A DNA stretch of 31,562 bases, taken from UHGV virus genome UHGV-0208736; one strand, given 5' to 3'. Origin of the DNA: a virus. Positions within the stretch are counted from its first letter, which is position 1. Every line of letters starts with the position of its first letter. A program made the translations under genes and the position numbers. Positions 2,239 through 24,489 of the stretch are shown one piece after another. The notes under the pieces are model-generated. The model was not told where the DNA came from and did no database searches. It saw only the letters and a list, made by a program, of their open reading frames with translations.

Positions 2239-2244
2239 AACTAA

Positions 2245-2404: not shown

Positions 2405-2916
2405 CTGGTAAATTTCCTCGCAAGATACGTTATTTCTTCTTCACAAAGTTCATCAAGGTCGTTAGATACAAATCCTCTGGTGAATGTTTTGCTGAACTTT
2501 AATCCGGCTTTATCATTGTCACCAGCGCACACCCATTCATACGGCAAAAGTGACATTTGCTGCCGTAAATCGGCGGGTATATTCGACCCAAGTGCGCTTA
2601 CAGCATTGAACCCGCAATTCATCAAAGCAACAGCTTTAAATATGCTTTCGGTAACAAATACGGTCCCGCTTTCCGGAAGGTATTCCAACCCCCATAAACA
2701 AGGTCTTGTTGTTCTGGTGAAGTACCGCGCGTCTTTAGGGTTTTTACAGTTCTTTTCAGCATGTGGCTTGTAATGCTGGTATCCGCGTAGCCTACCGTCA
2801 AAGCCCCACAAGTAGAATGTAGCAACGCCAGGGGCTAAGACTACCCGGAGACGGTCGGCGTCAAACCCACGCGCCAGCAGATGAGCTTTAAGTAGAAACT
2901 CTTCGAAATCCATCAT
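2401..2916 (-). CDS. TOPRIM-domain protein (DnaG-like primase catalytic core fragment)
   Basis: 171 aa; conserved Glu in VFVTESIFKA and DxD in WVCAGDNDKAG match the TOPRIM signature; start ATGATG overlaps helicase stop (ATGA). Confidence 0.5.
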   Translation of the reverse strand: MMDFEEFLLKAHLLARGFDADRLRVVLAPGVATFYLWGFDGRLRGYQHYKPHAEKNCKNPKDARYFTRTTRPCLWGLEYLPESGTVFVTESIFKAVALMNCGFNAVSALGSNIPADLRQQMSLLPYEWVCAGDNDKAGLKFSKTFTRGFVSNDLDELCEEEITYLARKFTR

Positions 2917-4337
2917 TTCTTACCTCGTCTCTTCATGTAATTAAGCAATTCTTCCTGTACCGATTTCTTCTCGTCTGTACGCGCGGCAACAACCTCGTCC
3001 AGCGTGTCTTTAGCAACGATGTGATAGAGGAATACCGGGCGTTCGTGGCCTGCCTGCTTCTGGCGGACCGGGCCTATACGCTCGACAACCTGCAAATAGT
3101 GCTCAAGGTTCCAGCCTTGCGAAATAAACGCCAGATGGTGACCGCCGTCCTGTAAATTCAAACCATGCCCGGCTGACGCAGGATGCACGCATAAGATTTC
3201 GATTTCGCCTCGGTTCCACGCCTCCATCTGCTTATTACCCTTCGCACCTTTAGAAAATGCCTGTGCCTGAGGGAATCGCTTAAGGATGCGTTCCAGTTCG
3301 TGCTTAAACTGATAGGCCACCAGTAACGGCGCACCCTGTAACTCCTCGACAATGGATTCCAGCGCATCCAGTTTCGTGTCATGAACTTTCTCCCAGTCTT
3401 TTGTTGCTTCGCCGTCCGGCCCTGATATGTACACTGCGCCGGATGCAATCTGCAAGCACTTCGACGTCTTCGCCGCTGCGTTAGCTGCTTCAACTTCTCC
3501 GCTTTCCAGCTCCGCGAATAGCTTCTCTTCCATGTCGATGTACGCCTGACGTGCTTTTTTCGGCAGGTCAATTTCAACCGGCACGATAATCGGCGCTTCA
3601 CACCCAAACCACTCGGCGGCGTCAATCGTGAGGCTGATGTCTTTCATCTTCTGGTGAATTTCGTTATCGGCGCCCGGGCGTGCGTGATACTCGCGGGCCA
3701 TCGCCGACTTACCTTTCTGTACAGAGTTAAACCATCGGTCGGTGAATGCCGTGTACGAAGAGCCGAGGCGCTCGCCTGCATCGATAAACCAGTTCTGACC
3801 CCACAAGTCCTTGAGGCCGTTTGGTGATGGCGTACCCGTCAGGTTAATGAAGCGCTTAACCTTTCCGAACGCCACTTTGCTAAGCGCCTTTGCCCTCTTG
3901 CTACCACCAGAACGGCTACGGAACGATTTCAGCTTCGTGCTTTCATCGGCAACGATAACAGTAAAAGGCCAGTCGTCTTTGCCGTAGTAGTCAATCAGCC
4001 ACTCGATAACTTCGTAGTTTGTACACACCACGTTAGCGTCTGACTCCAGCGCCGCGATACGGCGCTTCTCTGAACCTGTCGCATCGACGACGCTCAGACA
4101 TGGGAATTGCCATTTCTCTTGTTCCGCGGGCCATGTACCCGATGCAACGCGCAACGGGGCGAGGATTAACACCCGGTCCTCTTCCGTAAGCTGCCCGTTG
4201 CGGAACAGGCGGTTTAGAACCCACATTGTCGACGAGGTCTTGCCGCCGCCCATACCGCACCATATATTGCAACGTGGGTGCTGTAACATAAACGACGTCA
4301 TTATTTTCTGATATTCCCTGCGCCTAAACTTACTCAT
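2913..4337 (-). CDS. ATP-dependent DNA helicase, superfamily 2 (SNF2/DEAD-like)
   Basis: 474 aa; Walker A GMGGGKTS, DExx-like box IVADESTKL; start ATG overlaps stop of upstream HNH gene (ATGA); SD GGGGAG upstream. Confidence 0.7.
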   Translation of the reverse strand: MSKFRRREYQKIMTSFMLQHPRCNIWCGMGGGKTSSTMWVLNRLFRNGQLTEEDRVLILAPLRVASGTWPAEQEKWQFPCLSVVDATGSEKRRIAALESDANVVCTNYEVIEWLIDYYGKDDWPFTVIVADESTKLKSFRSRSGGSKRAKALSKVAFGKVKRFINLTGTPSPNGLKDLWGQNWFIDAGERLGSSYTAFTDRWFNSVQKGKSAMAREYHARPGADNEIHQKMKDISLTIDAAEWFGCEAPIIVPVEIDLPKKARQAYIDMEEKLFAELESGEVEAANAAAKTSKCLQIASGAVYISGPDGEATKDWEKVHDTKLDALESIVEELQGAPLLVAYQFKHELERILKRFPQAQAFSKGAKGNKQMEAWNRGEIEILCVHPASAGHGLNLQDGGHHLAFISQGWNLEHYLQVVERIGPVRQKQAGHERPVFLYHIVAKDTLDEVVAARTDEKKSVQEELLNYMKRRGKK

Positions 4338-4831
4338 GCCTTGAACTCCCCGAAGTATATTTCCGCGGCTCTTTGGTATACGCGCGACGCTTCTTCTATA
4401 GTGTCAAAATAGCCAAGGTGGATGTATTTGTTATTGACGCCTATTCTGGCGCGCCACCTGCCAGAGGGTATTTGGTAGACCCCTATCGCACCGCTAGTGT
4501 TATGTGGTGAGCAGTCTCGGTTCTGAATCTGCTGGCTCCTGGTTGCTGGCCTTATATTATTTATGGCGTTATTAGCCCTGTTACGGTCTTTATGGTCAAG
4601 CTCACCATTATGATATTCTCCGTAGACGAAAGCCCATGCCAGATGGTGGGCTTTTATTCTTACACCGGAGACCGTAATAACTATGTATCCTTTGTCGTTT
4701 GGTCCCCCGGCTACCTCCCCCGCATTTCTACCTTTTATGCTTACTTTCCGTGTAAATATGCCTGTTTCGGGGTCATAGTTAAGAAGACGTTTCGCCTCCT
4801 CAATATCAGGCCTTCTAGTTAATTTACTCAT
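4334..4831 (-). CDS. HNH homing endonuclease with AP2-type DNA-binding domain
   Basis: 165 aa; HNH core HHLAWAFVYGEYHNGELDHKDRNRANNAINNIRPAT; AP2-like GVYQIPSGRWRARIGVNNKYIHLGYFDTIEEASRVY; ATGA overlaps on both sides. Confidence 0.8.
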   Translation of the reverse strand: MSKLTRRPDIEEAKRLLNYDPETGIFTRKVSIKGRNAGEVAGGPNDKGYIVITVSGVRIKAHHLAWAFVYGEYHNGELDHKDRNRANNAINNIRPATRSQQIQNRDCSPHNTSGAIGVYQIPSGRWRARIGVNNKYIHLGYFDTIEEASRVYQRAAEIYFGEFKA

Positions 4832-5019
4832 TTCAACACCAGTACCAGCTCTTTACGTCCAAACGCCGTAACGTTACCTGTTACATCTTCGATAACCAGT
4901 TTACCGTTCGACTCTACGAACACCGTATCAACAGCAACAGGCTGGCGGGTTTTAACATTGAAAATCATGTCGCCAGGTACGATGTCACGTGCTGGTTTGC
5001 GGTCATATTCATGTTTCAT
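4828..5019 (-). CDS. hypothetical protein (63 aa), first gene downstream of promoter P1
   Basis: ORF with AAGGAA SD 7 nt upstream of ATG at 5019; stop overlaps HNH start. Confidence 0.5.
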   Translation of the reverse strand: MKHEYDRKPARDIVPGDMIFNVKTRQPVAVDTVFVESNGKLVIEDVTGNVTAFGRKELVLVLK

Positions 5020-5049
5020 TTCTCAATTCCTTATATTGTTGGTGTAGGA

Positions 5050-5334
5050 TTAACTATAATAGTTAGCTATTAGGTCGTCAACCTGTTTAAACGAACCAAC
5101 GACAAAAACATTTGCGCCACGTTTACGCATACGCTCGTGTTCTCGTAACTGGTGCGGGTCAGGTTTCGTGTTTTCGTCTTTCTTCACCTCTACGAACCAG
5201 ACGGTGCCGCCGGGGAGAATTACCAGCAGGTCGGGGGCGCCGGAACGCCCCTCGTACGAAAGTTTACGAACGAGGCCGCCCAGGGCCTCGAATCGCTCTT
5301 TTGCGTATTTCTGTACGCGTCCCTCTTTAGTCAT
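5050..5334 (-). CDS. VRR-NUC domain nuclease (PD-(D/E)xK superfamily)
   Basis: 94 aa; PDLLVI...VWFVEVKK...PHQLREHERMRKRGANVFVV matches VRR-NUC D...E-x-K pattern. Confidence 0.7.
   Translation of the reverse strand: MTKEGRVQKYAKERFEALGGLVRKLSYEGRSGAPDLLVILPGGTVWFVEVKKDENTKPDPHQLREHERMRKRGANVFVVGSFKQVDDLIANYYS
5053..5081 (-). promoter_or_regulatory. sigma70-type promoter P1 (minus strand): -35 TTGACG, 17-nt spacer, -10 TATAGT; contains 20-bp conserved core AACTATAATAGTTAGCTATT (plus 5052-5071)
   Basis: Reverse complement reads TTGACG-N17-TATAGT; the 20-bp core is identical to 11861-11880 and near-identical to 9362-9381; lies at the 3' end of the VRR-NUC gene immediately upstream of gene 4828..5019. 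Confidence 0.5.
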
Positions 5335-5483
5335 GGCCGCAGAATCCAGGTAATGAAAGCCCCGCCCAGAAGGGCAACACCGACAAACTTAAAGAACAGG
5401 CTATAACAGAACACCGCGGCTATTCCTGCACCGAGTAGCAGTGCCAGCATGGTTACTGTCGTCCAAAATACAAACATTGTCAT
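5331..5483 (-). CDS. unannotated 50-aa hydrophobic (membrane) peptide
   Basis: MTMFVFWTTVTMLALLLGAGIAAVFCYSLFFKFVGVALLGGAFITWILRP; ATGA overlap with upstream ORF stop and with VRR-NUC start; GGAG 10 nt upstream; below track cutoff. Confidence 0.4.
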   Translation of the reverse strand: MTMFVFWTTVTMLALLLGAGIAAVFCYSLFFKFVGVALLGGAFITWILRP

Positions 5484-5674
5484 AATAAAGGCTCCGCGTC
5501 CGGGTTACGCAGGAAGTACGCTTGGTAGATGTCGTGCTCCGTGTAGTAAACACCTTTGTGCGTACACCCGGCGCACGCATCGCTAAAGAACCCATCACCC
5601 ATTACCATGATAAATTCCCATTCCGGCATATCCACCAACGCAGCCAGTTTCTTACTAAATTGTTTGTTACTCAT
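5480..5674 (-). CDS. hypothetical protein (64 aa from ATG 5674; the track start at 5683 is GTG)
   Basis: MSNKQFSKKLAALVDMPEWEF...; GAGGGG SD upstream; ATGA overlaps at both ends. Confidence 0.45.
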   Translation of the reverse strand: MSNKQFSKKLAALVDMPEWEFIMVMGDGFFSDACAGCTHKGVYYTEHDIYQAYFLRNPDAEPLL

Positions 5675-5760
5675 AATACGCACCCCTCGCGTTTCGTATG
5701 TTCAATCCCGCAGCGCGGACAGATTCGGCAGTCTTCTTCATAGAACCAGTAAATTTTCAT
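5671..5760 (-). CDS. unannotated 29-aa Cys-rich peptide, possible zinc ribbon (MKIYWFYEEDCRICPRCGIEHTKREGCVL)
   Basis: CxxCxxC...C spacing; ATG overlaps upstream stop (ATGA) and its TGA overlaps the next ATG; weak SD so translation would rely on coupling. Confidence 0.3.
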   Translation of the reverse strand: MKIYWFYEEDCRICPRCGIEHTKREGCVL

Positions 5761-5888
5761 TCCAGCACCCACAGATAAATTGCGATAAACATGCCAAATA
5801 CGGCAACCATCATGCCGTATTGACCCTCGTGACAGTAGACACCGGCGGCGAATCCAGCCAGTACTGCGATAATCAGTTTACTTAGCAT
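5757..5888 (-). CDS. unannotated 43-aa hydrophobic (membrane) peptide
   Basis: MLSKLIIAVLAGFAAGVYCHEGQYGMMVAVFGMFIAIYLWVLE; ATG at 5888 lies 8 nt inside the 3' end of the DNA polymerase gene with AGAGGT SD 7 nt upstream. Confidence 0.35.
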   Translation of the reverse strand: MLSKLIIAVLAGFAAGVYCHEGQYGMMVAVFGMFIAIYLWVLE

Positions 5889-8148
5889 AACGGTACACCT
5901 CTTCCCCGGCCCATGTTAGTGGGAACCCTTTGGCCCATTCAGGTAATGAGCATAACAGGTCGCCCATCTCTTTAACCGTGTACTCCGGTGTGTCTGGTGT
6001 TTCGGCGACACACTCATCGTGTACGTGAAGTACAATTGGGTAGCCCGCTGCCTCGACCGTCAGGAGTCCGTTGACCAGTAAATCACGGCACAACGCTTGA
6101 ATGATGTTTTCACACAATTTTCCGCCGTGTGTGTACAAAGTCGTCCACTGGCGGGTGGTCTGATTTTCGCCCTGGTATTTAATGCGAACGTTAGTTGTTA
6201 CGCGCCCATCCTCGTCGGTCTCTTTAGTGACGCTTAAACCTATACCAGGGTAGGACATGATGCGCCCAGACGGCAGTTCCACACACAACCACCAACCCGG
6301 CACAAAGTTACCCTGTCTGTCTTTCTCTTTAGTACGCCAGATGCGAATAGCCCTGTCGCCGTTAAGGCGTACTCTGGCCCCCGCCCAAAACTCTCGTCCC
6401 GGATTTCTGATTGCAGCAATCACCGAATCCTTAAGGTCGTTCCAGAATCTCACTGTTTCCGGATGGGCCTCGCGCCACATGCGCTTGATAGCGTCGCAAG
6501 TGCGCCAGACTTCCTTAGGCAACACGTAAGAGGCCCGTTCGTCCTTTTTACCAGGTTTTGGCGGCCGCTTAGCCTCCTGAATCCGCGCCCATTCATAGCC
6601 TCGGGCAGTGGCGGCCCATATATGGTCAGGGAATGTCCCCCGCATTGTCTCCGTCATTTTAAAGAGGTCCAGCCCATAAGTTTTAGCCATAGTCATGAAG
6701 GCCCCTACACCTCCCTCGTAGCCGAGGCCCAGCTCGCAACATTTCCCGACCTGTCGTAGGTCTTTACGGGTGGCTTTCAGCTCTATAGGATCCATGCCAA
6801 ACATCTTGCCCGCAGTGGCGCAATAAATATCAATCCCCGCGCGGAACGTCTCAAGGGCAGATGTCTCCCCCGCCGTCCAGGCTAACCCACGGCCTTCCAC
6901 GTTCGAGTAGTCGGCAACGAGTAACTTATTACCTTTTTCCGGGATGATGCAGCTGCGGACAGTCGAGGCCGTTAGCTTAGATACATCAAAACGGCGATGC
7001 GCCCGGCCCTTTAAAAGCAAATTGATGCCGAAGGATAGCGGGTTAAGCCTGCGGTTCCAGTCTTCGTCGGACTCCCACGGCTGGCGTACGAGTTTCTTTT
7101 CCTCGTTAGTCGGGTCGTCGTGGTAGTACCCACGCGACAGGTTCTGCGGCTGGAACCCTTTGCCCGCAAATCGTAAAGTGCGCTTTGCCCCACCGTACTG
7201 GATGCAACCACGGCGTCGTCCGTCTTTGGACCGTCCTAGCAGGAGCGGTTTATATTTTGTTGACGCCGTGGAGGCCGCGCCGAGGCGCATCTCAATGATT
7301 GTGCGCGCATCGTTAGGTAAGTCGTCGTCCTCTAGCAAACCTTCGAGCGTTGCTTTCTGCGCATTATAAATATTGTAGGCCGGTGCCAGTTCCCGAAGGA
7401 TTGGCAGGAAGTCTTTGCCCGTTAGCTTCCCGCCAAATTTCGCGCGGGCCTCGTTTTTTAGCTCTTGCTTGTGACGTTCAACTGCCGCGACCGCCGCCTC
7501 AGCAAGAGCCGTATCGACAAAGAAGCCTCGGTCGTTGATTAGCTGGTCCAGTTCCAGTACACGGTCTTCGAACTCAGAGTTACCCCAACGCGGCAGCTTA
7601 TGGAAGACCTCACGCATTGCAGTGATGTCGCTTACGGCGTACTTGATGAACAGCGCCCACTCGTCCGGGTGTGTTTCCGCGGTGTAGCGACGGATTTTGT
7701 AGTTCTTCGGCGTCGGTTTAGAGAAACGCTGAATCAGCGCCTTGCCCCGCTTATCTTTCGCGTTGTCCGCAGATACTCCCAGCACTTCGCATAATGCATC
7801 GAGTGAACCCGGCAGCGCGTGGCGAAACGCCCAAATCATCGTATCAATGGTGTTGCTTACCGGAATATCAAAACCCCAGCAGTGCTTCATGATGAGCCTA
7901 TCGAACATTAAAAAGTTATGGCCCACGATTTTCATACGTCCGCGCATAACATTACGGAGCGCCATGCGTAGGCTTATTGGCATTACTGGTTCGGAAGTGC
8001 AATCCCATACTTCTACTGGACCATCATCAACGGCATACGTACAAATTATAACCTCTGTCGTTGGGTGCTCCGCATACGCATACGACCCGACTTTCTTTAA
8101 GTCTGCTTCGGAGAATGTCTCGGTATCCAGGTATAATAAACTAGTCAT
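5878..8148 (-). CDS. DNA polymerase, family A, with N-terminal 3'-5' exonuclease domain
   Basis: 756 aa; Exo I motif YLDTETFS; polymerase motif A LLVADYSNVEGR; motif C VLHVHDECV; AAGGAA SD upstream of ATG 8148. Confidence 0.85.
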   Translation of the reverse strand: MTSLLYLDTETFSEADLKKVGSYAYAEHPTTEVIICTYAVDDGPVEVWDCTSEPVMPISLRMALRNVMRGRMKIVGHNFLMFDRLIMKHCWGFDIPVSNTIDTMIWAFRHALPGSLDALCEVLGVSADNAKDKRGKALIQRFSKPTPKNYKIRRYTAETHPDEWALFIKYAVSDITAMREVFHKLPRWGNSEFEDRVLELDQLINDRGFFVDTALAEAAVAAVERHKQELKNEARAKFGGKLTGKDFLPILRELAPAYNIYNAQKATLEGLLEDDDLPNDARTIIEMRLGAASTASTKYKPLLLGRSKDGRRRGCIQYGGAKRTLRFAGKGFQPQNLSRGYYHDDPTNEEKKLVRQPWESDEDWNRRLNPLSFGINLLLKGRAHRRFDVSKLTASTVRSCIIPEKGNKLLVADYSNVEGRGLAWTAGETSALETFRAGIDIYCATAGKMFGMDPIELKATRKDLRQVGKCCELGLGYEGGVGAFMTMAKTYGLDLFKMTETMRGTFPDHIWAATARGYEWARIQEAKRPPKPGKKDERASYVLPKEVWRTCDAIKRMWREAHPETVRFWNDLKDSVIAAIRNPGREFWAGARVRLNGDRAIRIWRTKEKDRQGNFVPGWWLCVELPSGRIMSYPGIGLSVTKETDEDGRVTTNVRIKYQGENQTTRQWTTLYTHGGKLCENIIQALCRDLLVNGLLTVEAAGYPIVLHVHDECVAETPDTPEYTVKEMGDLLCSLPEWAKGFPLTWAGEEVYRYAK

Positions 8149-8614
8149 GGCAATAAAATTCCTTATGCAGTTTTTCTCTTAATTTCTTTACCGCGCTTTC
8201 TGCTTCTTCAAGAGTTCCGTAGCTACCAGCATTGTAACTTTTGTAGTTAAAGTGTACCCGCCCATAAAATCGGTTGCCGTTTTTAACTACTCCCTTAACT
8301 CCCGTTCTAGCTCCCTTATTTTTAGCGTTTCGCACATTATCTGCGGTGGTTGCTTTCCTTAGGTTAGAAATCCTATTGTCTAACCTGTCTCGGTTTATGT
8401 GGTCAAGAGGTCCCTCGGGCCATTCACCGTACTCGAAAAACCAAGCAAGCCTGTGGGCCATGTAATATCTGCCCATATAAGGTATTCGCCAGTATCCACT
8501 ACTATTGATGCATCCTGCGATGTCTCCAGGTTTTCCTCGTCTGTACGTAGGTTGTATCCATGTGAATATCCCGGTTTCTCGGTTATAGCTAAGAAAATCT
8601 TTTATATGTTCCAT
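8141..8614 (-). CDS. HNH homing endonuclease with AP2-type domain (start taken at ATG 8614; the track start at 8638 is TTG)
   Basis: HNH core MAHRLAWFFEYGEWPEGPLDHINRDRLDNRISNLR; AP2-like GVKGVVKNGNRFYGRVHFNYKSYNAGSYGTLEEAESA; AT-rich relative to neighbours; stop overlaps polymerase start by 8 nt. Confidence 0.75.
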   Translation of the reverse strand: MEHIKDFLSYNRETGIFTWIQPTYRRGKPGDIAGCINSSGYWRIPYMGRYYMAHRLAWFFEYGEWPEGPLDHINRDRLDNRISNLRKATTADNVRNAKNKGARTGVKGVVKNGNRFYGRVHFNYKSYNAGSYGTLEEAESAVKKLREKLHKEFYCHD

Positions 8615-8626
8615 TCTGACTCCGGT

Positions 8627-8649
8627 AAAAAGGCCCAATGAAGGGCCTT
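8627..8649 (-). terminator. rho-independent terminator on minus strand after the SSB-like gene
   Basis: Minus-strand RNA: AAGGCCC-UUCAUU-GGGCCUU followed by UUUACC; 20 nt downstream of the TAA at 8669-8671. Confidence 0.45.
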
Positions 8650-8668
8650 AGTTAAATTGATTCATATA

Positions 8669-9307
8669 TTAGCGGCGGCGACGTTCGCGACGCGGTGCAG
8701 GTTCATCATCCTCAAGGTCGTTAAGGTCTACGGTAGCTCCGGCACCGCCGAATGCTTCGCCATCATCCTTAAAGCGAACACCGAGGAGTTCTACGCCGAG
8801 GTTTTTATAAGTTGAGTACCAATACACATCAACTACGATATTAGCGTAACAACCAGAATAAACTTCCTTACCTTCTACATCGTCACCTGCTTCGGTAAGG
8901 CCCTTGACTACACGCCCGCCGCGTTGGCACTGCACCTCACCCTCAGAAGTCGCGATCATAGGTTGCTTACGGCTCTTAGCCATGAAATACAAACCTTCCT
9001 CAAGCCCTTCAATCGGTGAATCACGCTGTGCGAGGTCGCGGAACGCACATTTATCTGCATGGTTTCCGAAGCCGAAGTTTTTTGACATCCACTTTTCGGC
9101 GGCAGAAGCACTACCTAACGCTTCAGTCATAACTTCAGTTACAGCGTCTTCAATTTTCTCAATTTGCGGGTCGTCTTTATCCAGATACGCTGTAAGCTGG
9201 TATTGGCCTTCTACTTGTTGCCCCTGACTATTTACACGGTCCGCTGCTTTCTTATAAACGTCTACCCATCCGATACGCACGTTGCTCAGTTTAACTTTGA
9301 TACCCAT
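8669..9307 (-). CDS. possible ssDNA-binding protein (T7 gp2.5-like / DUF2815-like), acidic C-terminal region
   Basis: 212 aa; N-terminus MGIKVKLSNVRIGWVDVYKK...GQYQLTAYLDKDD resembles the gp2.5-like SSB family pattern (from memory); C-terminus DLNDLEDDEP; GAGGAA SD upstream; first gene after promoter P2. Confidence 0.4.
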   Translation of the reverse strand: MGIKVKLSNVRIGWVDVYKKAADRVNSQGQQVEGQYQLTAYLDKDDPQIEKIEDAVTEVMTEALGSASAAEKWMSKNFGFGNHADKCAFRDLAQRDSPIEGLEEGLYFMAKSRKQPMIATSEGEVQCQRGGRVVKGLTEAGDDVEGKEVYSGCYANIVVDVYWYSTYKNLGVELLGVRFKDDGEAFGGAGATVDLNDLEDDEPAPRRERRRR

Positions 9308-9362
9308 ATCTCGATTCCTCAGTTTTCAGTTTACTCCGGGAACTGCCCGGCCAGTGATTAGA

Positions 9363-9392
9363 ACTATAATAGCTAACTATTCGGGTTGTCAA
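9363..9392 (-). promoter_or_regulatory. sigma70-type promoter P2 (minus strand): -35 TTGACA, 18-nt spacer, -10 TATAGT; core AACTATAATAGCTAACTATT (plus 9362-9381)
   Basis: Reverse complement reads TTGACA-N18-TATAGT; the core differs from P1/P3 only by inversion of the central 4 bp; located in the 89-bp intergenic gap upstream of the SSB-like gene. Confidence 0.5.
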
Positions 9393-9396
9393 CACT

Positions 9397-9570
9397 TTAT
9401 TTAAGTTTCTTCGGAACTACCTTATAAATATAGGGCTGCACCGCCTCATGCTTTGAGTTCTTCTCTTCTGCAATTTTGTCGGCGTCGGCGCGTTTAGCGT
9501 GAACAGAGACAATATCAAGTTCTTGAATAGAGTATCGGCGGTGATATCGCGTGAGAATATAAACCATCAT
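9397..9570 (-). CDS. hypothetical protein (57 aa from ATG 9570)
   Basis: MMVYILTRYHRRYSIQELDIVSVH...; strong SD GAGGAGGA 6-7 nt upstream; ATG overlaps stop of the exonuclease gene (ATGA). Confidence 0.45.
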   Translation of the reverse strand: MMVYILTRYHRRYSIQELDIVSVHAKRADADKIAEEKNSKHEAVQPYIYKVVPKKLK

Positions 9571-10808
9571 TCTAAATCCTCCTCTGTTACCTGATTCCAC
9601 TCAGGCCGTTTGTCGTCTGTCGTTGCGACACATGGTGCGCCAGGCTTACGGGTAATGAAGTCTTTCAGTTCTTCTTCCGGTATGACTTTAACCGCTTCGG
9701 TCGGCGTCATGAGCACTTCTTTAGTCAGCTTGTAACCGTATTTCTCGTATACCGCCTCTGCATCTTTCCATGCACGATTACCTGGGCGACCCTCAACCAG
9801 TTTGTACCCAGGCACTTTCTTACCGGAATGCAACGCGGCGGCCATAGCTTTTTCAACCTTGTCGATGTGCTGGCGCAGGAACGGCAACTTCTCATACTCA
9901 GCGACGAGTTGCTCTGGTGTCAGTTCCAGCACAAAGTTGTCCCCCAGTTCTTCCGCCAGTACAGAATTAACCGTCTTTGTACGCGCGGCGCACTGTTCTG
10001 AGAACCGGCACCACTGGCAGCCATCGACAGACGGCTTGAAGTCCGACGCTTTCAGGTTCTTCTTGCCACGGAAATAGGCGTCAAGCGCTAACAGCGCCCG
10101 TTTCTGTGCGAACTTAGCAAACAGTTCCAGACCTTCAACCGAGATGTCCCACTCCGAAGCGCCACCAGCGTACGGCTGGAAGATGACCAGACGAACGATT
10201 GTTATGTTATAACGTCTCTTGAGTCGGCGATAAACACCGAGAGCGTAAAGCATAAGCTGCTTGTTTTCTTTCGCTTCGACACGATGCCGTCCTGTTTTAA
10301 GGTCTCCGATGATGAGCATATGCCCGTCGGTGTTCGCCAGTTCCTGTACGGCAACAAGGTCAGCGGTTCCGAACGTCTCAACGCCTTCGTAGCCCGGATG
10401 CAATACCTCAGTAAGATTGACCCGCATTTCCAGCTTGGCGTAAGTCGCTACGTCGATAATCAGTTTGCAGTAGTCGGTGTACTTGCGCACCTGCTCAATC
10501 ATGTCCGCCGTAATCAGTACCGCGCCTTTCATCGGACTGATTAGCGCCTCAATCGGCCCTTTACCTTCATCCAGAACATAAGCACCAACTTCACGCTCTA
10601 ACGGCAGCGCAGTTCCGCGGATATAGGCGTTGAGATGTACCTCAGCTATGGTGTGCATAGCTGTGCCTAATACCGCAGCTTTACCGGACGTGTTAGGGAT
10701 ATCTTTTTCACAGGCCAGTGATGCTGGGCAGGTTAACCACTTTTTAGCACCGGATGGCGACAGTAAGGCGTGCACATCATTATTGCCGCCGCGTTCTTTT
10801 AAAATCAT
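9567..10808 (-). CDS. Cas4/RecB-like PD-(D/E)xK exonuclease with putative Fe-S cysteine cluster and C-terminal extension (start at ATG 10808; the track start at 10823 is GTG)
   Basis: N-terminal Cys (WLTCPASLAC) plus C-terminal C-x2-C-x5-C (CQWCRFSEQC); nuclease-like core IIGDLKTGRH...QLMLYALGVY; GGAG SD upstream; ATG overlaps stop of upstream gene. Confidence 0.6.
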   Translation of the reverse strand: MILKERGGNNDVHALLSPSGAKKWLTCPASLACEKDIPNTSGKAAVLGTAMHTIAEVHLNAYIRGTALPLEREVGAYVLDEGKGPIEALISPMKGAVLITADMIEQVRKYTDYCKLIIDVATYAKLEMRVNLTEVLHPGYEGVETFGTADLVAVQELANTDGHMLIIGDLKTGRHRVEAKENKQLMLYALGVYRRLKRRYNITIVRLVIFQPYAGGASEWDISVEGLELFAKFAQKRALLALDAYFRGKKNLKASDFKPSVDGCQWCRFSEQCAARTKTVNSVLAEELGDNFVLELTPEQLVAEYEKLPFLRQHIDKVEKAMAAALHSGKKVPGYKLVEGRPGNRAWKDAEAVYEKYGYKLTKEVLMTPTEAVKVIPEEELKDFITRKPGAPCVATTDDKRPEWNQVTEEDLE

Positions 10809-11077
10809 GCCCTGTTCTCCCACTGGTCTATTAAATGTCGTGTCTTATGGTCGCAATGTAAGGCCCAGCCATACATCGACTCGAAGACATAAAGGTCAGG
10901 CCTGGCGAAAGTCGTGCGCTTAATCTGCGACACGTGACGGCCTATATCTTTAGGTCGCGGCGCTTTGCCTAAGTACGCCATCTCTTCCATCTGGTGCGCA
11001 CCGGACGGCGCACGCAACAGCCATAGCGCCTCTGTGTTATCCCGACTGTCAACGGCGCGGTAGAGTTGGTAAATCAT
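10805..11077 (-). CDS. hypothetical early protein (90 aa)
   Basis: ORF preceded by conserved initiation cassette ACTGAGGGTCGGAATT-ATG. Confidence 0.45.
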   Translation of the reverse strand: MIYQLYRAVDSRDNTEALWLLRAPSGAHQMEEMAYLGKAPRPKDIGRHVSQIKRTTFARPDLYVFESMYGWALHCDHKTRHLIDQWENRA

Positions 11078-11088
11078 AATTCCGACCC

Positions 11089-11304
11089 TCAGTAGTACGG
11101 TGCGAATTCACCCTTAACGGCGGTACGTACGGACATAAGATTATGTTTTCTGTCCGGGTAATTATCCGCCCACACCAGATTATTATCGTAATCTAGAACG
11201 CCGTACCAACATCCGTTTAATACGAAAAATCGTTGTTCACCCGTGGTTGCCGCGCTTATTTCCACAACGATTTGCTCATTTATCACTTTATATACGTTAC
11301 ACAT
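11089..11304 (-). CDS. hypothetical early protein (71 aa)
   Basis: ORF preceded by conserved initiation cassette ACTGAGGGCCGGAATT-ATG. Confidence 0.45.
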   Translation of the reverse strand: MCNVYKVINEQIVVEISAATTGEQRFFVLNGCWYGVLDYDNNLVWADNYPDRKHNLMSVRTAVKGEFAPYY

Positions 11305-11322
11305 AATTCCGGCCCTCAGTTT

Positions 11323-11346
11323 GTTGCCCTCACGTATGAGGGCAAC
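11323..11346 (-). other. stable intergenic RNA stem-loop (10-bp stem, 4-nt loop) without U-tract
   Basis: GTTGCCCTCA-CGTA-TGAGGGCAAC perfect inverted repeat between the acidic early gene and the next gene; followed by AAACUGAGGG rather than a U-run on the minus-strand RNA. Confidence 0.45.
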
Positions 11347-11359
11347 ATAAGTTAAGTAG

Positions 11360-11830
11360 TTATTCTTCTTCGAAATACTTGTTCTTGATTGCCGTCAGGC
11401 GTTCAAGATATTCTGCAAGGTCTTCATCTTTAATCGCGGCAATCTTCATCTTCTTACCGGTGAACTCTTCCAGCAGTTCATCAGAATCATCGCACGCAGC
11501 ATCGCTTGGGCCCTCGTTAATCGCATCGTCGATAGCCTGAATCTGGTCACGCAGAGACTGGTAATCGACTTCTTCCTTCTCTTCTTCCGGCTCTGGCGCT
11601 GGCTCCTCTACTTTAGCTTTACGAGGCTTGCGTTTCGGCTTCTCTTCTTCTGCGGGTTTAGTGTCGACGATGTCTTCACCTTCGACTGGGATTTCTTTTG
11701 TTGCTTCTTTTGCAACAGTAGGCTCGATTGTTGCAGTTTCCGCAACGACAACCTGTTTTGCACTGTTCGCCGCAATCAGTTCGTGGGCAACTACGAAACG
11801 TTCCAGTAATTTTAAGAATTGGTCTAACAT
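11360..11830 (-). CDS. highly acidic early protein (156 aa), first gene of the early operon; candidate DNA-mimic / anti-restriction or host-takeover factor
   Basis: Very Glu/Asp-rich (EEEKPKRKPRKAKVEEPAPEPEEEKEEVDYQ...DDSDELLEEF...KDEDLAEYLER); strong SD GAGGAGAG; directly downstream of promoter P3. Confidence 0.5.
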   Translation of the reverse strand: MLDQFLKLLERFVVAHELIAANSAKQVVVAETATIEPTVAKEATKEIPVEGEDIVDTKPAEEEKPKRKPRKAKVEEPAPEPEEEKEEVDYQSLRDQIQAIDDAINEGPSDAACDDSDELLEEFTGKKMKIAAIKDEDLAEYLERLTAIKNKYFEEE

Positions 11831-11861
11831 TTGTTTCTCTCCTCTCGTTTGGTATGGGCTA

Positions 11862-11890
11862 ACTATAATAGTTAGCTATTCACATGTCAA
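11862..11890 (-). promoter_or_regulatory. sigma70-type promoter P3 (minus strand): -35 TTGACA, 17-nt spacer, -10 TATAGT; core AACTATAATAGTTAGCTATT (plus 11861-11880)
   Basis: Reverse complement reads TTGACA-N17-TATAGT; 20-bp core identical to P1; about 30 nt upstream of the early operon start codon. Confidence 0.55.
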
Positions 11891-11934
11891 TGGGCTTTTC
11901 TAAAATAATTAATATGGTACTATTCACATATCAA
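11876..11934 (+). promoter_or_regulatory. candidate plus-strand promoter (TTCACA-N16-TAAAAT) with two 15-bp direct repeats CTATTCACAT(G/A)TCAA as putative operator sites
   Basis: Repeats at 11876-11890 and 11920-11934 (14/15 identical, 44 bp apart); repeat 1 overlaps the -35 of both divergent promoters; repeat 2 lies between the predicted TSS and the SD of the HTH gene. Confidence 0.35.
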
Positions 11935-11954
11935 CTGACTAAGGAGTAATTGAC

Positions 11955-12170
11955 ATGCAACCATCTGAACTAGGCATCCGTGTAGAACAACGCCGTAAAG
12001 AACTCGGCCTCTCCCAGCGCCGTCTGGCTGTCCTGGCTGGCGTTTCCCAGGGCGCGATTAACCAGCTGGCACTCGGTGTAACCCAGGACGTCCGCCCGGC
12101 AACGCTGTTTAAACTGGCGGAAGTGCTGGAAGTAGATGCCAAGTGGCTGGCGTTCGGTGAAGGGGCTTAA
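11955..12170 (+). CDS. Cro/C1-type (XRE family) helix-turn-helix transcriptional regulator
   Basis: 71 aa; RKELGLSQRRLAVLAGVSQGAINQLALG is a canonical XRE HTH; SD AAGGAG 8 nt upstream; only plus-strand gene inside the minus-strand module. Confidence 0.75.
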   Translation: MQPSELGIRVEQRRKELGLSQRRLAVLAGVSQGAINQLALGVTQDVRPATLFKLAEVLEVDAKWLAFGEGA

Positions 12171-12186
12171 CGCCCCCTTTCTTTTT
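12162..12186 (+). terminator. rho-independent terminator after the HTH regulator gene
   Basis: GGGGC-TTAAC-GCCCC hairpin (stop codon within loop) followed by CTTTCTTTTT. Confidence 0.5.
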
Positions 12187-12188
12187 AC

Positions 12189-14450
12189 CTATTCCAAATC
12201 TTCCTCGGTTACTATCAGCATCTCATTCGGTTCGTATATTGTCTTCGGAATCTTGTTATCGTTTATGCCCCACGGCAACCGGTATTGCTTAGGTATAGGC
12301 CTGTTGTTGTTATCCAGACCTGAGACGATAATCCCGGCCTCGTGCATCTCCTCCAGTTTCTTTCGAAGGTCGTTATTAGCATTAATTGGTACGCCGTAAC
12401 TATCTTCTTTCGCCGCTTTGACGATAGCTGACATAGAGAACCCTCGTTTATCGTCACCCTGCTCCTGCAATTTACCCAATGCGTAAATAACCGTAGCCTC
12501 TTTGGTGTCCAGTTTCTCGAACTGGCCTACCTTTTCTTTAACGGCTTCCTTCTGTTCGTCGGTCAGACCTTCTACTTTCTTCACGAAGACAGAGAATGCG
12601 TTGAAGTTAACAAAGACATCAATATGCGGATTTCCTGCGTCAAAATCGCGTACATCATCACTACTATACCCTTCCGGAAGACCCATGAAGTTGTGAGTTG
12701 GTTCTTTCTTTTCTGGCGGCTCCGCTATCTGAATCTTCTGTATTACGAACCCTCTGGCTTTTTGCCGTTCTCCGTTTCGGTTCTTTATGTGGTACAGGTT
12801 TATCTCTAAGTTATTGTCGTTGTCCGGCTTATGCAGGAACATCCCGTTGTCGATGGAGTTGTGGAAATCACTACCACCCTTCGGCATCATGCCGTTCTCG
12901 GATGGTACTGTTTCGTCGATGTTTTTAGTCGGGTGCACCATAGCGCCTACCGCGGCGTTAAGCGTCGACGCTATTTCGTTAAGCGCCTGCGCCGCCTCTT
13001 TCATCGACCTGTTGTCGTTCTCGTCAAAACCAGGTATGCAAGTTTGCAGGGTATCAAACGTAACCTTTACAATTTTCTCTTCACCGGCAACACGACGCAT
13101 CATTCTCACCGCCTGGCGGCGCCACACCTCATCGAGTAAGTTACACCCTTCCGCGACACAATCGATGATGTGCAAGCGGTCAAGGCTATCGCCGAGGGCA
13201 ATCTGTAAAGATTTTTTATGCCTCTCGAACGACTGCGCACCTTCTCCAGCGAAAATGAACGCATGCCCTTCAGCAACCTCTGCCCCGCCGAACGCATATC
13301 TTTTTTCGGCAGCAATAGCGGCGTCAATCGCCATACTAAATGTTGACTTACCAGTGTGGGACTTTGCACAAATGTAGAATGATTCGTTAGTCTGCATAAG
13401 ACCGTCCACTACGGAGTAAGCAGGTTCTTTTTCTACTTCCGGCTCGTCTTCAAGGTCTTCAAGCGTGCAAGTTACAGGCTCCTCGTTCTCTGTGCGGTGC
13501 AGTTCTTCAATATCTTCATCCGGTAAATCAGGCAGAGCCGCACGGATGCTATTAATACTGATAGGTTGCTTGTCTACGTTAAGCTCGTCCGGAAGACCGC
13601 ACATACGCAGGGCCAAATGCTGCCGACGGTTTAGCTCAGTGCAAGCGCCATTGTTTGTATGCTGGCAGACAAAGCGCACTTCTTTACCGTCAAGCATGAT
13701 GCTTGTGGAGCCTTTGCCGGTATGCAGATGTTCGTTAGGGCATGGAACTTCGTACCCGCGCCCGGAAGATAAAGCGTCAAGGCCAAGCTCCGCTTCGCAG
13801 AAATGCGCTATATCAGCGTTAAGCCCATGCTCATCGGCAGCAAGTGTCTTAGCTTCACGTTTACGCAGCCCCATCTCTTCGGCTTTCTTGATGTACCGCT
13901 CCGCACGGATAACGCGCCCTTCAGTAACAGTTATCTTTGACTCTTTATGAGGCAGGTAGATAAGGCGGTTGCCGTCTTCGGTGCAGTGGTCGCGCAACGC
14001 TTCGTCTATTTCTAACTCCGCACAAATAGCACGTTGCACCATCCATGCATCGTTAGAGTTAAATGGAGTGCGGGCAGGTACGAGAACGCGGAAAGCGTAG
14101 TCACCGTTTTTACACGCGTGCTGGTGCGACGCCGTTGTGTGCAGAATATTGAAGAACGTCGCGTTCTTGAATTTGCGGGTAAGGTCGCGGTACTGAGTAC
14201 GGTTGAGATGGTCAAAGTCGAACTTAACCACACTATCTTCCAGAATCGCGTTCTTACGGCGACCCCCAACAGGTGCAATTGCTTTCTGCTTAATCTTGGC
14301 AGCGTCGTACTCTTCCTTAGACCACGACGGATCCACGGATAAACGCTTGGATGTATCGCAGACATACTCTACGAACTGCTCCAGCGGCATTTCACGAGCT
14401 ACAGGGTTTTTATCGAATGTGTTGCGCAGTGTCGCAAAAACAATATTCAT
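12189..14450 (-). CDS. DNA primase-helicase-like replication protein: archaeo-eukaryotic primase (AEP)-type N-terminal domain plus P-loop NTPase domain
   Basis: 753 aa; AEP-like motifs KFDFDH (DxD) and TTASHQH (sxH); Walker A AKSHTGKST; Walker-B-like LHIID. Confidence 0.6.
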   Translation of the reverse strand: MNIVFATLRNTFDKNPVAREMPLEQFVEYVCDTSKRLSVDPSWSKEEYDAAKIKQKAIAPVGGRRKNAILEDSVVKFDFDHLNRTQYRDLTRKFKNATFFNILHTTASHQHACKNGDYAFRVLVPARTPFNSNDAWMVQRAICAELEIDEALRDHCTEDGNRLIYLPHKESKITVTEGRVIRAERYIKKAEEMGLRKREAKTLAADEHGLNADIAHFCEAELGLDALSSGRGYEVPCPNEHLHTGKGSTSIMLDGKEVRFVCQHTNNGACTELNRRQHLALRMCGLPDELNVDKQPISINSIRAALPDLPDEDIEELHRTENEEPVTCTLEDLEDEPEVEKEPAYSVVDGLMQTNESFYICAKSHTGKSTFSMAIDAAIAAEKRYAFGGAEVAEGHAFIFAGEGAQSFERHKKSLQIALGDSLDRLHIIDCVAEGCNLLDEVWRRQAVRMMRRVAGEEKIVKVTFDTLQTCIPGFDENDNRSMKEAAQALNEIASTLNAAVGAMVHPTKNIDETVPSENGMMPKGGSDFHNSIDNGMFLHKPDNDNNLEINLYHIKNRNGERQKARGFVIQKIQIAEPPEKKEPTHNFMGLPEGYSSDDVRDFDAGNPHIDVFVNFNAFSVFVKKVEGLTDEQKEAVKEKVGQFEKLDTKEATVIYALGKLQEQGDDKRGFSMSAIVKAAKEDSYGVPINANNDLRKKLEEMHEAGIIVSGLDNNNRPIPKQYRLPWGINDNKIPKTIYEPNEMLIVTEEDLE

Positions 14451-14575
14451 TTCTTTTTCTCCGCACGTTCTAAGGCTTCCTGCATACGACGCATTGCGCG
14501 GTTCATCTTTACCGGTGCGAAGAAATCAGCGCCGTGTTTCTGGCGGCGTAGCTGTGGAACTATTAACTTCGTCAT
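14447..14575 (-). CDS. unannotated 42-aa basic peptide (MTKLIVPQLRRQKHGADFFAPVKMNRAMRRMQEALERAEKKK)
   Basis: AAGGA SD upstream of ATG 14575; TGA overlaps primase ATG (ATGA); below track cutoff. Confidence 0.35.
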   Translation of the reverse strand: MTKLIVPQLRRQKHGADFFAPVKMNRAMRRMQEALERAEKKK

Positions 14576-14625
14576 TGTATAATCCTTGTGCTTACTTTGA
14601 TGATTTGTACTTTAACCCCGACGTT

Positions 14626-14859
14626 CTAGCGTTGGGGTTTCTTTTGCCTACGTGCAGCATTAATCCACTCTCCTTCGCTCTGGTAGAAACTGCAATCAAG
14701 AATATCCTCTATAGAAAATTTAACTATTTTAGTGGGTCCACAAAAGTTATAAGGGAAAAGTTCTACATAACACCCATCGTCAGTTATATTTGACGCAATC
14801 TTGAAATAATATTTAACGCTGCCGTCTTCACGGAAGCTACAACCCATACGCCCAATCAT
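14626..14859 (-). CDS. hypothetical protein (77 aa), AT-rich gene
   Basis: ORF with ATG overlapping stop of the upstream HTH gene; markedly lower GC than flanking genes. Confidence 0.45.
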   Translation of the reverse strand: MIGRMGCSFREDGSVKYYFKIASNITDDGCYVELFPYNFCGPTKIVKFSIEDILDCSFYQSEGEWINAARRQKKPQR

Positions 14860-15026
14860 TTCACGTTCTCCTTAATCCACGCTTCAACTTTATTACGGTC
14901 AAATGTTCCCGGCATCCGGCGGCCCATTACTTTAACGCTGCAATCAGGAAACTTTCCACTCTTAATCCAGTTATTAATTGTCTGACGCGTCACCCCGATA
15001 CGTTCTGCAACTTCATTGATAGTCAT
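14856..15026 (-). CDS. unannotated AlpA/excisionase-type helix-turn-helix regulator (56 aa), first gene of the primase operon
   Basis: MTINEVAERIGVTRQTINNWIKSGKFPDCSVKVMGRRMPGTFDRNKVEAWIKENVK; HTH plus conserved W matching the AlpA/Xis-like HTH_17 pattern; SD AGGAGA 5 nt upstream; below track cutoff. Confidence 0.6.
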   Translation of the reverse strand: MTINEVAERIGVTRQTINNWIKSGKFPDCSVKVMGRRMPGTFDRNKVEAWIKENVK

Positions 15027-15368: not shown

Positions 15369-15385
15369 TCGAGAAAGGGGGAAAC

Positions 15386-24432: not shown

Positions 24433-24489
24433 TTGGTGTAAGTGAATAGTACCCTATTATATTGGGGTGCGCAAGTAATGTGATAGAAT
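24433..24489. promoter_or_regulatory. divergent promoter region: plus-strand TTGGTG-N16-TATTAT and TTGGGG-N16-TAGAAT; minus-strand TATAAT (plus 24456-24461) for the accessory island
   Basis: Seen directly; located in the 167-bp gap between the island and the tail chaperone gene; the minus -35 (ATCACA) is weak. Confidence 0.35.

Follow-up and report, generated by a model that had tools for sequence, protein, structure and literature searches.

A repeated 20-bp block in a Kagunavirus combines a predicted promoter element with a putative operator, likely for a Cro-like protein

A repeated block at three strong promoters

The window, a stretch of 31,562 nucleotides from virus genome UHGV-0208736, has nearly the same 20-bp sequence in front of several minus-strand genes. 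What is this block, and which protein might bind it? The source is a Kagunavirus (Guernseyvirinae), a virulent siphophage of the E. coli/Salmonella phage group.

The block (AACTATAATAGTTAGCTATT) occurs exactly at 5052-5071 and 11861-11880, with 0 matches expected (100 shuffles), and a copy with two mismatches lies at 9362-9381, where the central TTAG is replaced by CTAA. These three places are those of the original prediction, and the inverted repeat that it described in the shared core (AATAG-N4-CTATT) is real. It also described the third copy as having an inverted central tetramer, but this is not a meaningful inversion: the centre is unconstrained and varies at the homologous sites of relatives. 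Three copies is also too low a count. If up to one mismatch to AATAGNNNNCTATT is allowed, the window has five sites, against 0.72 expected and fewer than 5 in every shuffle. The two additional sites are:

24445-24458: a perfect dyad, embedded in a promoter.
11911-11924: a dyad with one mismatch (AATATGGTACTATT).

An Rfam search of the window gave no match.

Read in reverse complement, all three copies of the block do form TTGAC(A/G)-N17/18-TATAGT, as predicted. Each is followed, 32-56 nt further downstream, by a minus-strand ATG (5019, 9307, and 11830) with a GGAG-type SD. The three copies are the best three sigma70-like promoters on the minus strand in a promoter scan of positions 1-16000 (scores of 10-11 out of 12). 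P1 scored 10/12 and P2 and P3 scored 11/12, with spacers of 17, 18, and 17. The promoters, their dyads, and the features that follow are:

5053..5081, minus strand: promoter P1, with -35 TTGACG (5081..5076), a 17-bp spacer, and -10 TATAGT (5058..5053).
5058..5071: dyad O(P1), putative operator, AATAGTTAGCTATT.
4828..5019, minus strand: first gene after P1, 63 aa.
9363..9392, minus strand: promoter P2, TTGACA-18-TATAGT, within the 89-nt intergenic gap 9308-9396.
9368..9381: dyad O(P2), putative operator, AATAGCTAACTATT.
8669..9307, minus strand: first gene after P2, an Enc34-type ssDNA-binding protein.
8647..8627: intrinsic terminator 3' of the ssDNA-binding gene, GGCCC-ttcatt-GGGCC-TTTTT.
11862..11890, minus strand: promoter P3, TTGACA-17-TATAGT.
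11867..11880: dyad O1, or O(P3), putative operator, AATAGTTAGCTATT.
11360..11830, minus strand: first gene after P3, 156 aa, a "13.88 kDa late protein" in the annotation of relatives.
11346..11323: stem-loop after the 156-aa gene, with a 10-bp stem.

Judging from these sequences, the 20-mer is a composite of a sigma70-type -10 box and the 14-bp dyad AATAG-N4-CTATT. Because 16 of the 20 positions belong to constrained elements (the -10 and the dyad arms) and only the four central bases are free, the exact identity of copies across 20 bp is in part incidental.

The three promoters had also been proposed to partition the minus strand into transcription units, and this is only partly so. The first gene after P2 is followed by a canonical terminator, but the promoters act more like internal boosters. 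P1 lies inside the upstream VRR-NUC gene, within the last 10 codons (...VDDLIANYYS*) of ORF 5050-5334, and the stem-loop after P3's first gene lacks a U-tract. The 63-aa gene after P1 leads into HNH and helicase genes, as far as a terminator at 2245-2260.

The dyad arms are conserved across phages

We compared 108 homologous instances of P1-P3 from 39 genomes, using raw counts that ignore the kinship of the genomes. The dyad arms were non-consensus at 5 of 1080 positions (0.5%), while the dyad centre was non-consensus at 55 of 432 (12.7%), the 4-nt linker to the -35 at 52 of 432, and the downstream leader at 163 of 1080, or 12-15% overall for the centre and flanks. Among the relatives, each site has 7-9 different centres. 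P1 itself is kept in 34 relatives, and the arms of O(P1) are conserved among them while its centre occurs in 9 variants. The spacer just 5' of the dyad varies, indels included, and both arms stay fixed. Even where the P1 dyad lies in coding sequence, the arms persist while the central codon switches among N, D, S, H, and G.

Near-consensus sigma70 hexamers with 17-18 bp spacing are kept at the three sites in the 39 Kagunavirus genomes and in Jerseyvirus. Two members of this different genus (Ent1 and SS3e) have identical arms at the homologous promoters. Nearly invariant arms beside a variable centre, linker, and leader are the pattern expected of an operator superimposed on a promoter, and the earlier suggestion of a common operator laid over the sigma70 elements gains support from this comparison.

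Cornellvirus has a variant dyad (ATTAG-N4-GTAWT), an imperfect palindrome, at the equivalent promoter positions. There are three exact copies (0.1 expected) and further one-mismatch copies at other promoters. In complete relatives of the source phage, the divergent early promoters P4 and P5 also carry the dyad. Scanning IMG/VR for exact matches to TGAATAGNNNNCTATTAT added no members to the family: most matches were single chance matches in unrelated contigs, and only Kagunavirus contigs had several matches each. A natural arm variant, ACTAG in place of AATAG, is present at one IMG/VR locus.

The regulator could have been a phage or a host protein. Because Jerseyvirus and Cornellvirus share the Salmonella host yet carry different dyads, a phage-encoded factor is favored and a host factor is unlikely. 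The motif does not fit the consensus of ArgR, CRP, IHF, LexA, or Fur. We also rejected a role for the dyad as a hairpin, in RNA or DNA, as a 5-bp AT-rich stem is too weak. A strong promoter of Salmonella phage MB78 reportedly interacts with a phage-specific factor.

A second promoter layout

The perfect dyad at 24445-24458 belongs to a promoter of another layout ("class B"):

24446..24474, minus strand: promoter P6, with -35 TTGCGC (24474..24469), a 17-bp spacer, and -10 TACTAT (24451..24446).
24445..24458: dyad O(P6), putative operator, AATAGTACCCTATT, which covers the -10.
24224-24415: gene after P6, a 63-aa membrane "imm-like" protein.

Beyond the imm-like gene, P6 is predicted to drive an exonuclease-like gene (23031-24185) and then an HNH gene (22515-23015). 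The orientation of O(P6) is opposite to that of the dyads at P1-P3. Thus, the dyad is found in two layouts: TTGACA-N4/5-dyad-ATAGT, or TTGCAC-N10-dyad with the -10 (TACTAT) inside the dyad. Contacts with RNA polymerase cannot explain both arms, because the dyad occurs in two registers and in both orientations. By its placement, the dyad behaves like an operator that overlaps the spacer and the -10.

A Cro-like protein is the favored binder

Two small HTH proteins encoded in the window are candidates to bind the dyad. The one that we favor is encoded divergently from P3:

11955..12170, plus strand: 71-aa HTH_3 protein, candidate repressor (Pfam HTH_3, 1.3e-12).
11879..11906, plus strand: predicted promoter of the Cro-like gene, TTCACA-16-TAAAAT, by consensus match only.
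11911..11924: degenerate second dyad O2, AATATGGTACTATT, with one arm mismatch, 44 bp from O1.

This is the sole plus-strand gene within the minus-strand replication module. It is monocistronic and ends at a terminator at 12162-12176, and its promoter region is almost invariant (36 sequence variants). The right arm of O1 overlaps the -35 (TTCACA) of its predicted promoter. Relative to the predicted start, the centre of O1 lies near -40 and that of O2 near +4. O2 was listed by PHIRE as a member of the motif family in phages Golestan and fBC-Eco01.

The best solved relative of the 71-aa protein is 434 Cro (PDB 1zug), with E = 3.9e-7 across residues 6-68 of 71. A lambdoid phage has a cro that is 46% identical to it when aligned (45% by tblastn) and that lies beside ACAA-N6-TTGT operators. 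Upstream of distant Cro-like homologues, dyads are different or absent; the useful case is Klebsiella phage RCIP0034, with 434-like ACAA-N6-TTGT 14-mers beside a homologous cro. As far as its sequence goes, the 14-bp dyad, with its free centre, has the geometry of the 434 Cro family. Both components of such a system are found here: a small single-domain HTH_3 protein of about 70 aa, and a 14-bp dyad with conserved outer half-sites and a variable centre.

We propose that the block joins the -10 box of strong early/middle promoters of the sigma70 type to a 14-bp operator. A dimer of the Cro-like protein likely binds this operator and would thereby repress the promoters; our confidence in this is somewhat better than even. 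The sites, where they sit in promoters, how selectively they are conserved, and the homology of the protein are observed; the binder and the repression are inferred. The dimer would bind each operator via the two 5-bp arms and leave the central 4 bp uncontacted. Because each operator occupies spacer positions together with part of the -10 (its first base at P1-P3, most of it at P6), the bound protein would exclude the host RNA polymerase. Once accumulated, it would turn down P1-P3, which serve the replication module, and the P6 island, and P4 and P5 as well in complete relatives. The Cro-like gene is probably autoregulated, because O1 overlaps its -35 and the weaker O2 lies at its predicted start.

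An improbable extension of this model is that the Cro-like protein is a full temporal switch that also activates divergent promoters from the same sites. In that case, six or more early/middle promoters would be shut off by a single protein, bound at dispersed single operators, in a phage that has neither cI nor lysogeny. Sites centred about 40-44 bp upstream would activate divergent promoters with poor -35 elements, as lambda cI does at PRM. Candidate targets are its own promoter (11879-11906) and a conserved TGaTAGAAT promoter (24481-24489) ahead of the tail-assembly genes.

Other explanations

The main rival binder is an AlpA-like HTH protein, whose gene opens the leftward early operon:

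14856..15026, minus strand: AlpA/Xis-like HTH_17 protein, 56 aa (Pfam HTH_17, 1.3e-9).

This protein could bind the dyad and repress or modulate all of the dyad-bearing promoters, which we consider unlikely but worth weighing. Its range (443 phage records, from Kagunavirus and Jerseyvirus) coincides with that of the exact AATAG-N4-CTATT motif. Between these genera the protein has 77-79% identity and almost the same predicted recognition helix (VTRQTINNW vs. VTRRTLNNW), and in complete relatives its gene is directly downstream of the dyad-bearing divergent promoter P4. The Cro-like protein's predicted helix, by comparison, differs between Kagunavirus (SQGAINQL) and Jerseyvirus (SQSLITHL), though the dyad arms are identical. 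The Cornellvirus helix (TQSAISHL) is closer to that of Jerseyvirus, though their dyads differ. The first glutamine of the Cro-like helix is invariant across the genera.

The Cro-like protein is present in all three genera (Kagunavirus, Jerseyvirus, and Cornellvirus), while the AlpA-like protein is absent from Cornellvirus (tblastn at E ≤ 1, whole genome), which keeps a dyad of the same geometry at the same promoters. Because Cornellvirus has the Cro-like gene, lacks the AlpA-like gene, and yet keeps a variant dyad, the Cro-like protein is favored. Also, the AlpA-like protein is a lone HTH_17 domain of 56 aa with no obvious dimerisation element and no solved homologue by sequence, and AlpA/HTH_17 relatives usually bind direct repeats, not dyads. 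A search for distant AlpA-like homologues with their flanks returned Kagunaviruses and short partial matches only, and did not discriminate between the candidates. We rejected a MerR-type operator, as the spacers are 17-18 bp rather than over-long (19-20 bp) and the 56-aa protein has no room for a coiled coil.

Another explanation is that there is no dedicated regulator and that the block is an unusually conserved promoter core, with a spacer that suits host RNA polymerase, spread from promoter to promoter by duplication or recombination. P1-P3 are near-consensus promoters, the sequence next to the -35 of P2 is unrelated from one genome to another (which makes promoters recombination junctions), and two genome papers give the motif simply as promoters. 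We still find this improbable. The spacer 5' of the dyad varies with indels while both arms are fixed; the class B dyad is shifted and inverted relative to the hexamers with its arms kept; O2 is at a predicted transcription start instead of in a spacer; and sigma70 recognition has no dyad symmetry.

Finally, the motif is very improbable as a promoter for a phage-encoded RNA polymerase or as a Q/AlpA-type antiterminator loading site between -35 and -10, even though it is the dominant repeated 20-mer retrieved by PHIRE, the lambda-type QBE and the P. aeruginosa AlpA ABE do sit between -35 and -10, and terminators do follow the first genes: the polymerase version is contradicted by the annotations of three complete genomes of the subfamily (KMB36, Ent1, and PhiSTP1, with 70-79 annotated features and 58-78 protein-coding genes each), none of which includes a phage RNA polymerase, and by the host-type hexamers at the sites, while for the antiterminator version there is a 56-aa protein and a dyad instead of a large Q/AlpA-like protein, the -10-like hexamers that follow P1 and P2 are still ahead of the predicted start, and inspection of the sites revealed no transcribed -10-like pause element.

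Comparison to known systems

Our proposed Cro-like repressor resembles 434 Cro and repressor in several ways. It is a single-domain HTH_3 protein; the 14-bp operators keep their outer bases while the centre, presumably uncontacted, varies, and they overlap promoters; and the regulator's gene neighbors its operators, of which more than one lies in the region of divergent promoters. Both here and in 434, the outermost operator base is A; the contact with A1 is known from established 434 structures, and we infer the same contact here. Unlike 434, this virulent phage has no cI partner or lysogeny module (the annotations of KMB36, Ent1, and PhiSTP1 include neither a cI-like gene nor an integrase). 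Nor does it have an immunity region with a divergent cI and tripartite OR/OL: its operators are single and dispersed, save for the O1/O2 pair, and are found at six or more promoters, instead of in two clusters of three. The half-site also differs (AATAG here, ACAA(G/A/T) in 434), as do other helix residues.

The layout is also similar to that of C1 from phage P1, a small phage repressor with many dispersed single operators that overlap -35 and -10 regions. The protein families are unrelated, and C1 binds asymmetric 17-mers in a temperate phage.

The lambda QBE and the P. aeruginosa AlpA ABE are alike in being elements for a small phage-type regulator between -35 and -10. They differ in that these sites are short and asymmetric, and the proteins that use them are larger, thread into the RNA exit channel, and depend on a sigma-dependent pause; none of this is seen here. 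P. aeruginosa AlpA, with over 140 aa, acts as a monomer on its 6-bp site and depends on a -10-like pause element that is transcribed.

The sequence family has been published before, as the PHIRE "phage-specific promoter" motif of Kagunaviruses, with 7 sites per genome that include O1 and O2 ("before ORF48"). In the fBC-Eco01 paper, the motif (tgAATAGTa-ccTATTat-T) was ascribed to an RNA polymerase encoded by the phage; the Golestan paper (Supplementary Table S4) reported conserved promoter sequences. Neither paper mentions that the motif is a dyad, that its centre is free, that it overlaps sigma70 hexamers, or which protein might bind it.

Significance

This control circuit is real but of a familiar kind: a phage HTH repressor that would occlude sigma70 promoters is textbook biology. 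Phages of the Guernseyvirinae (Kaguna-, Jersey-, and Cornellviruses) rank among the virulent phages isolated most frequently for therapy and biocontrol of E. coli and Salmonella, and a literature search found no transcription studies, transcriptomes, or 5'-end maps for the subfamily. The sole published interpretation of the motif invokes an RNA polymerase that these phages do not encode, so our analysis corrects the annotation. The operator and its candidate repressor provide a directly testable model for the timing of replication genes, and these elements may offer compact, very strong, and repressible promoter parts.

Promoters and dyads in the replication module

Escherichia phages of the genus Kagunavirus (Guernseyvirinae), virulent siphophages of 41-45 kb, align to 62-74% of the window at 83-92% identity. 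The window is circularly permuted, with its end (tail protein, 31562) adjoining its start (tailspike, 1). A minus-strand replication module spans 2.2-15 kb, with a single plus-strand gene inserted in it:

2913-4337, minus: helicase
5050-5334, minus: VRR-NUC
5878-8148, minus: DNA polymerase
8669-9307, minus: Enc34-type SSB
9567-10823, minus: nuclease
11360-11830, minus: 156-aa protein
11955-12170, plus: 71-aa HTH_3 protein (the Cro-like protein)
12189-14450, minus: primase-helicase
14856-15026, minus: 56-aa HTH_17 (AlpA/Xis-like) protein

The original prediction was that copies of a 20-mer, AACTATAATAGTTAGCTATT, mark three minus-strand promoters. Exact copies are present at 5052-5071 and 11861-11880, and none of 100 shuffles of the window contained a match. 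The copy at 9362-9381 does have two mismatches (central TTAG to CTAA), but the "inverted tetramer" is not a special feature, as it is one among many centres. On the minus strand, the three copies read as sigma70-type promoters, as expected: TTGACG-17-TATAGT (P1), TTGACA-18-TATAGT (P2), and TTGACA-17-TATAGT (P3). Each is upstream of a minus-strand gene, with a Shine-Dalgarno sequence and an ATG within 32-56 nt. In a promoter scan of the first 16 kb, P1-P3 were the top three sigma70-type matches; the overall count of promoter-like matches was not above chance.

Each promoter includes a 14-bp dyad (AATAG-N4-CTATT, or two arms around a centre), which is a candidate operator. Searching the window for AATAGNNNNCTATT with at most one mismatch gave 5 sites, versus 0.72 expected. 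Beyond the three already reported, these are a perfect dyad at 24445-24458 and AATATGGTACTATT at 11911-11924.

P2 and P3 are intergenic. The ten C-terminal codons of VRR-NUC (…VDDLIANYYS*; window 5050-5082) contain the whole of P1 (-35, operator, and -10), so this sequence has a dual use: the central codon varies among relatives (N/D/S/H/G) and the operator arms are fixed in the reading frame. A canonical terminator (8647..8627) follows the SSB gene, which is the first gene of P2, and a 10-bp stem-loop without a U-tract follows the first gene of P3. Because P1 is inside a gene and the first genes of P2 and P3 each end at a terminator or stem-loop, P1-P3 look like internal boosters for first genes that are needed in abundance, and not like the strict boundaries of transcription units that had been proposed.

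The leader of P2 (minus strand, SSB-like gene) has a conserved 5'-UTR hairpin just downstream of the promoter (CCGGGCAGTTCCCGG in the mRNA; window 9336-9350). The Cornellvirus version, CCTGGCAGTTCCCAGG, has a compensatory double change. The role of the hairpin may be to stabilise the mRNA, or to serve the ssDNA-binding protein as a translational operator.

Conservation of the arms within Kagunavirus

We collected 37 Kagunavirus loci from IMG/VR via the HTH protein, and we added the complete genome of phage KMB36. In the homologues of P1-P3, the hexamers and the two 5-bp arms are essentially fixed, and their surroundings drift. Pooling 108 promoter instances, the arms were non-consensus at 5 of 1080 positions, versus 55 of 432 for the central tetramer (Fisher p ~1e-25 for arms vs. 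centre, uncorrected for shared ancestry). The 4 nt between the -35 and the dyad were non-consensus at 52/432 positions, and also had indels, as were the 10 nt downstream of the -10 at 163/1080. Each site has 7-9 different centres. That P1 and P3 of the window match over all 20 bp reflects 16 constrained positions and coincidence at 4 free ones.

The few arm mutations are all single-base changes. In one locus (L030, IMGVR_UViG_3300010278_000001), AATAG is changed to ACTAG in the operators of both P1 and P2, and the operator of P3 (O1) is intact. This may be a parallel operator-down mutation or gene conversion. Also, the sequence that directly adjoins the -35 of P2 comes in at least three unrelated versions among Kagunaviruses (window 9393-9420; corresponding positions in loci L002-L038), so the conserved promoter-operator block at P2 serves as a recombination junction at which mosaic modules meet.

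A second promoter layout and other genera

Complete relatives contain 6-7 dyads per genome. The extra dyads are in promoters of the form TTGCAC-17-TACTAT (class B), where the dyad is over the -10 and its orientation is opposite to that in P1-P3. In the direction of transcription, class B reads ATAATAG-N4-CTATTCA, versus TGAATAG-N4-CTATTAT for P1-P3. P4 and P5 face the plus-strand early genes, and P6, which holds the window's fourth dyad, faces a small membrane "imm-like" gene:

24474..24469, minus: -35 of P6, TTGCGC
24451..24446, minus: -10 of P6, TACTAT
24415, minus: ATG of the gene

In the alignment to KMB36, window 11357-15274 matches 33147-37106 and window 15132-22270 matches 5306-12409. 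These blocks overlap in a ~140-bp repeat (window 15132-15274) that KMB36 has twice (at 5306 and 36962), so ~12.9 kb is missing from the window: early plus-strand genes, lysis genes, terS/terL, portal, and minor head protein. This is why P4 and P5 are not in the window. A collapse in assembly or a defective deletion probably accounts for the gap. The repeat starts with a promoter-like TTGACT-17-TAAGCT (plus strand); after it come ~190 nt that hold no ORF, and then a strong terminator (15341-15360). This region (15134-15365), whose 5' part is the duplicated repeat, is a possible phage non-coding RNA; it matches no Rfam family and its fold z-score is weak (-1.77).

Both arms are kept although the dyad stands in two registers to the hexamers and in either orientation, so contacts with RNA polymerase cannot explain their conservation. 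A putative symmetric DNA-binding protein can account for it across both layouts.

In Jerseyvirus, Ent1 and SS3e have exact AATAG-N4-CTATT at P1, P4, and P6, as does Ent1 at P2; there are one-mismatch dyads at P3 of both phages and at P2 of SS3e. The identity between their HTH protein and that of the window is only ~51%. The near-fixed arms with free centres and flanks, the two layouts, and the same promoters in Jerseyvirus support the original prediction of a common operator on top of the sigma70 elements. In the Cornellviruses PhiSTP1 and W5, AATAG-N4-CTATT is absent, even with one mismatch allowed. Instead, ATTAG-N4-GTATT is at the same place in the homologous P2 and P3 and, inverted, in a plus-strand promoter (3 exact copies vs. 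0.1 expected). ATTAG-N4-GTAAT or similar one-mismatch copies are at further promoter-like sites, one of which adjoins the HTH gene. Jerseyvirus and Cornellvirus both grow on Salmonella, yet their dyads differ, so of the phage or host regulator that had been suggested, a host factor is unlikely.

Which protein binds the dyad

We lean, with moderate confidence, towards the Cro-like protein. Its best solved relative is phage 434 Cro (E 3.9e-7, residues 6-68), followed by the 434 repressor. It is also similar to the annotated cro of a lambdoid Klebsiella phage (46% identity in the alignment, 45% by tblastn), which lies within a cI-cro-cII module whose intergenic region has ACAA-N6-TTGT 14-mers. 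Operators of the 434 family are 14-bp dyads whose outer bases are conserved and whose centre is free, and the dyad described here shares this geometry. The Cro-like gene is divergent from P3. Its predicted promoter (TTCACA-16-TAAAAT, 11879-11906) has a -35 that overlaps the right arm of O1, and the degenerate dyad at 11911-11924 (O2) is at the predicted start. This intergenic region is almost invariant among 36 sequence variants. With a terminator of its own at the end (12162-12176), the gene forms a self-contained regulatory cassette, and it is present in all three genera.

The AlpA-like protein is an alternative binder that we consider improbable. Between Kagunavirus and Jerseyvirus, which both have the exact motif, it is 77-79% identical and its helix hardly differs. 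However, records of the gene (443) come only from Kaguna- and Jerseyviruses, and one complete Cornellvirus genome lacks it. Cornellvirus keeps promoter-embedded dyads even so, and this counts most in favour of the Cro-like protein. On the other side, the predicted recognition helices of the Cro-like proteins (alignment A1: SQGAINQL in Kagunavirus, SQSLITHL in Jerseyvirus, and TQSAISHL in Cornellvirus) do not track the operators neatly. The Kagunavirus and Jerseyvirus helices differ but the arms are identical; the Jerseyvirus and Cornellvirus helices are more alike but the dyads differ. Because of this counter-evidence and the conservation of the AlpA-like protein, we leave some weight for the AlpA-like protein and for other readings.

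An antiterminator loading site of the Q/AlpA type is unsupported: AlpA from P. aeruginosa has over 140 amino acids, is monomeric on its 6-bp element, and depends on a pause element within the transcribed region, whereas the phage protein has 56 amino acids and the site is a dyad. MerR-like activation is unsupported given the 17-18 bp spacers of P1-P3.

Using PHIRE, the fBC-Eco01 paper (PMC9825357, Table S2) listed seven "phage RNAP promoters" (consensus tgAATAGTa-ccTATTat-T), and the Golestan paper (PMC7203180, Table S4) listed seven "conserved promoter sequences", including O1 and O2 "before ORF48". The dyad and its free centre, the sigma70 hexamers, and any binding protein go unmentioned in both papers. 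In three complete genomes of the subfamily (KMB36, Ent1, and PhiSTP1), no gene is annotated as an RNA polymerase, so the fBC-Eco01 promoters were mis-assigned. Our literature search found no transcriptome or binding study of Guernseyvirinae.

Proposed role

P1-P3 have near-consensus hexamers at optimal spacing, so they should fire unaided. A protein bound at about -29 to -12 (class A, the layout of P1-P3) or over the -10 (class B) would keep polymerase off. In the most economical model, we infer, the bound protein would limit early and middle transcription and shut it off after a delay, and the Cro-like gene would be autoregulated via O1 and O2.

Near P6, the region 24481-24545 (plus) opens with an extended -10 promoter without a -35 (TGaTAGAAT; 24481-24489). 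TAGAAT is kept in KMB36 and Cornellvirus, and a conserved structured leader follows, ahead of the tail-assembly chaperone gene at 24583. The centre of the P6 dyad is ~44 bp upstream of the predicted start, and a dimer bound there could activate this promoter. A dual repressor/activator reading, founded on this position, is speculative.

Overall, the dyad is a real, functional-looking element of the familiar HTH-repressor/operator class. What is distinctive for that class is that the host is a virulent phage and that the operators are single and dispersed.
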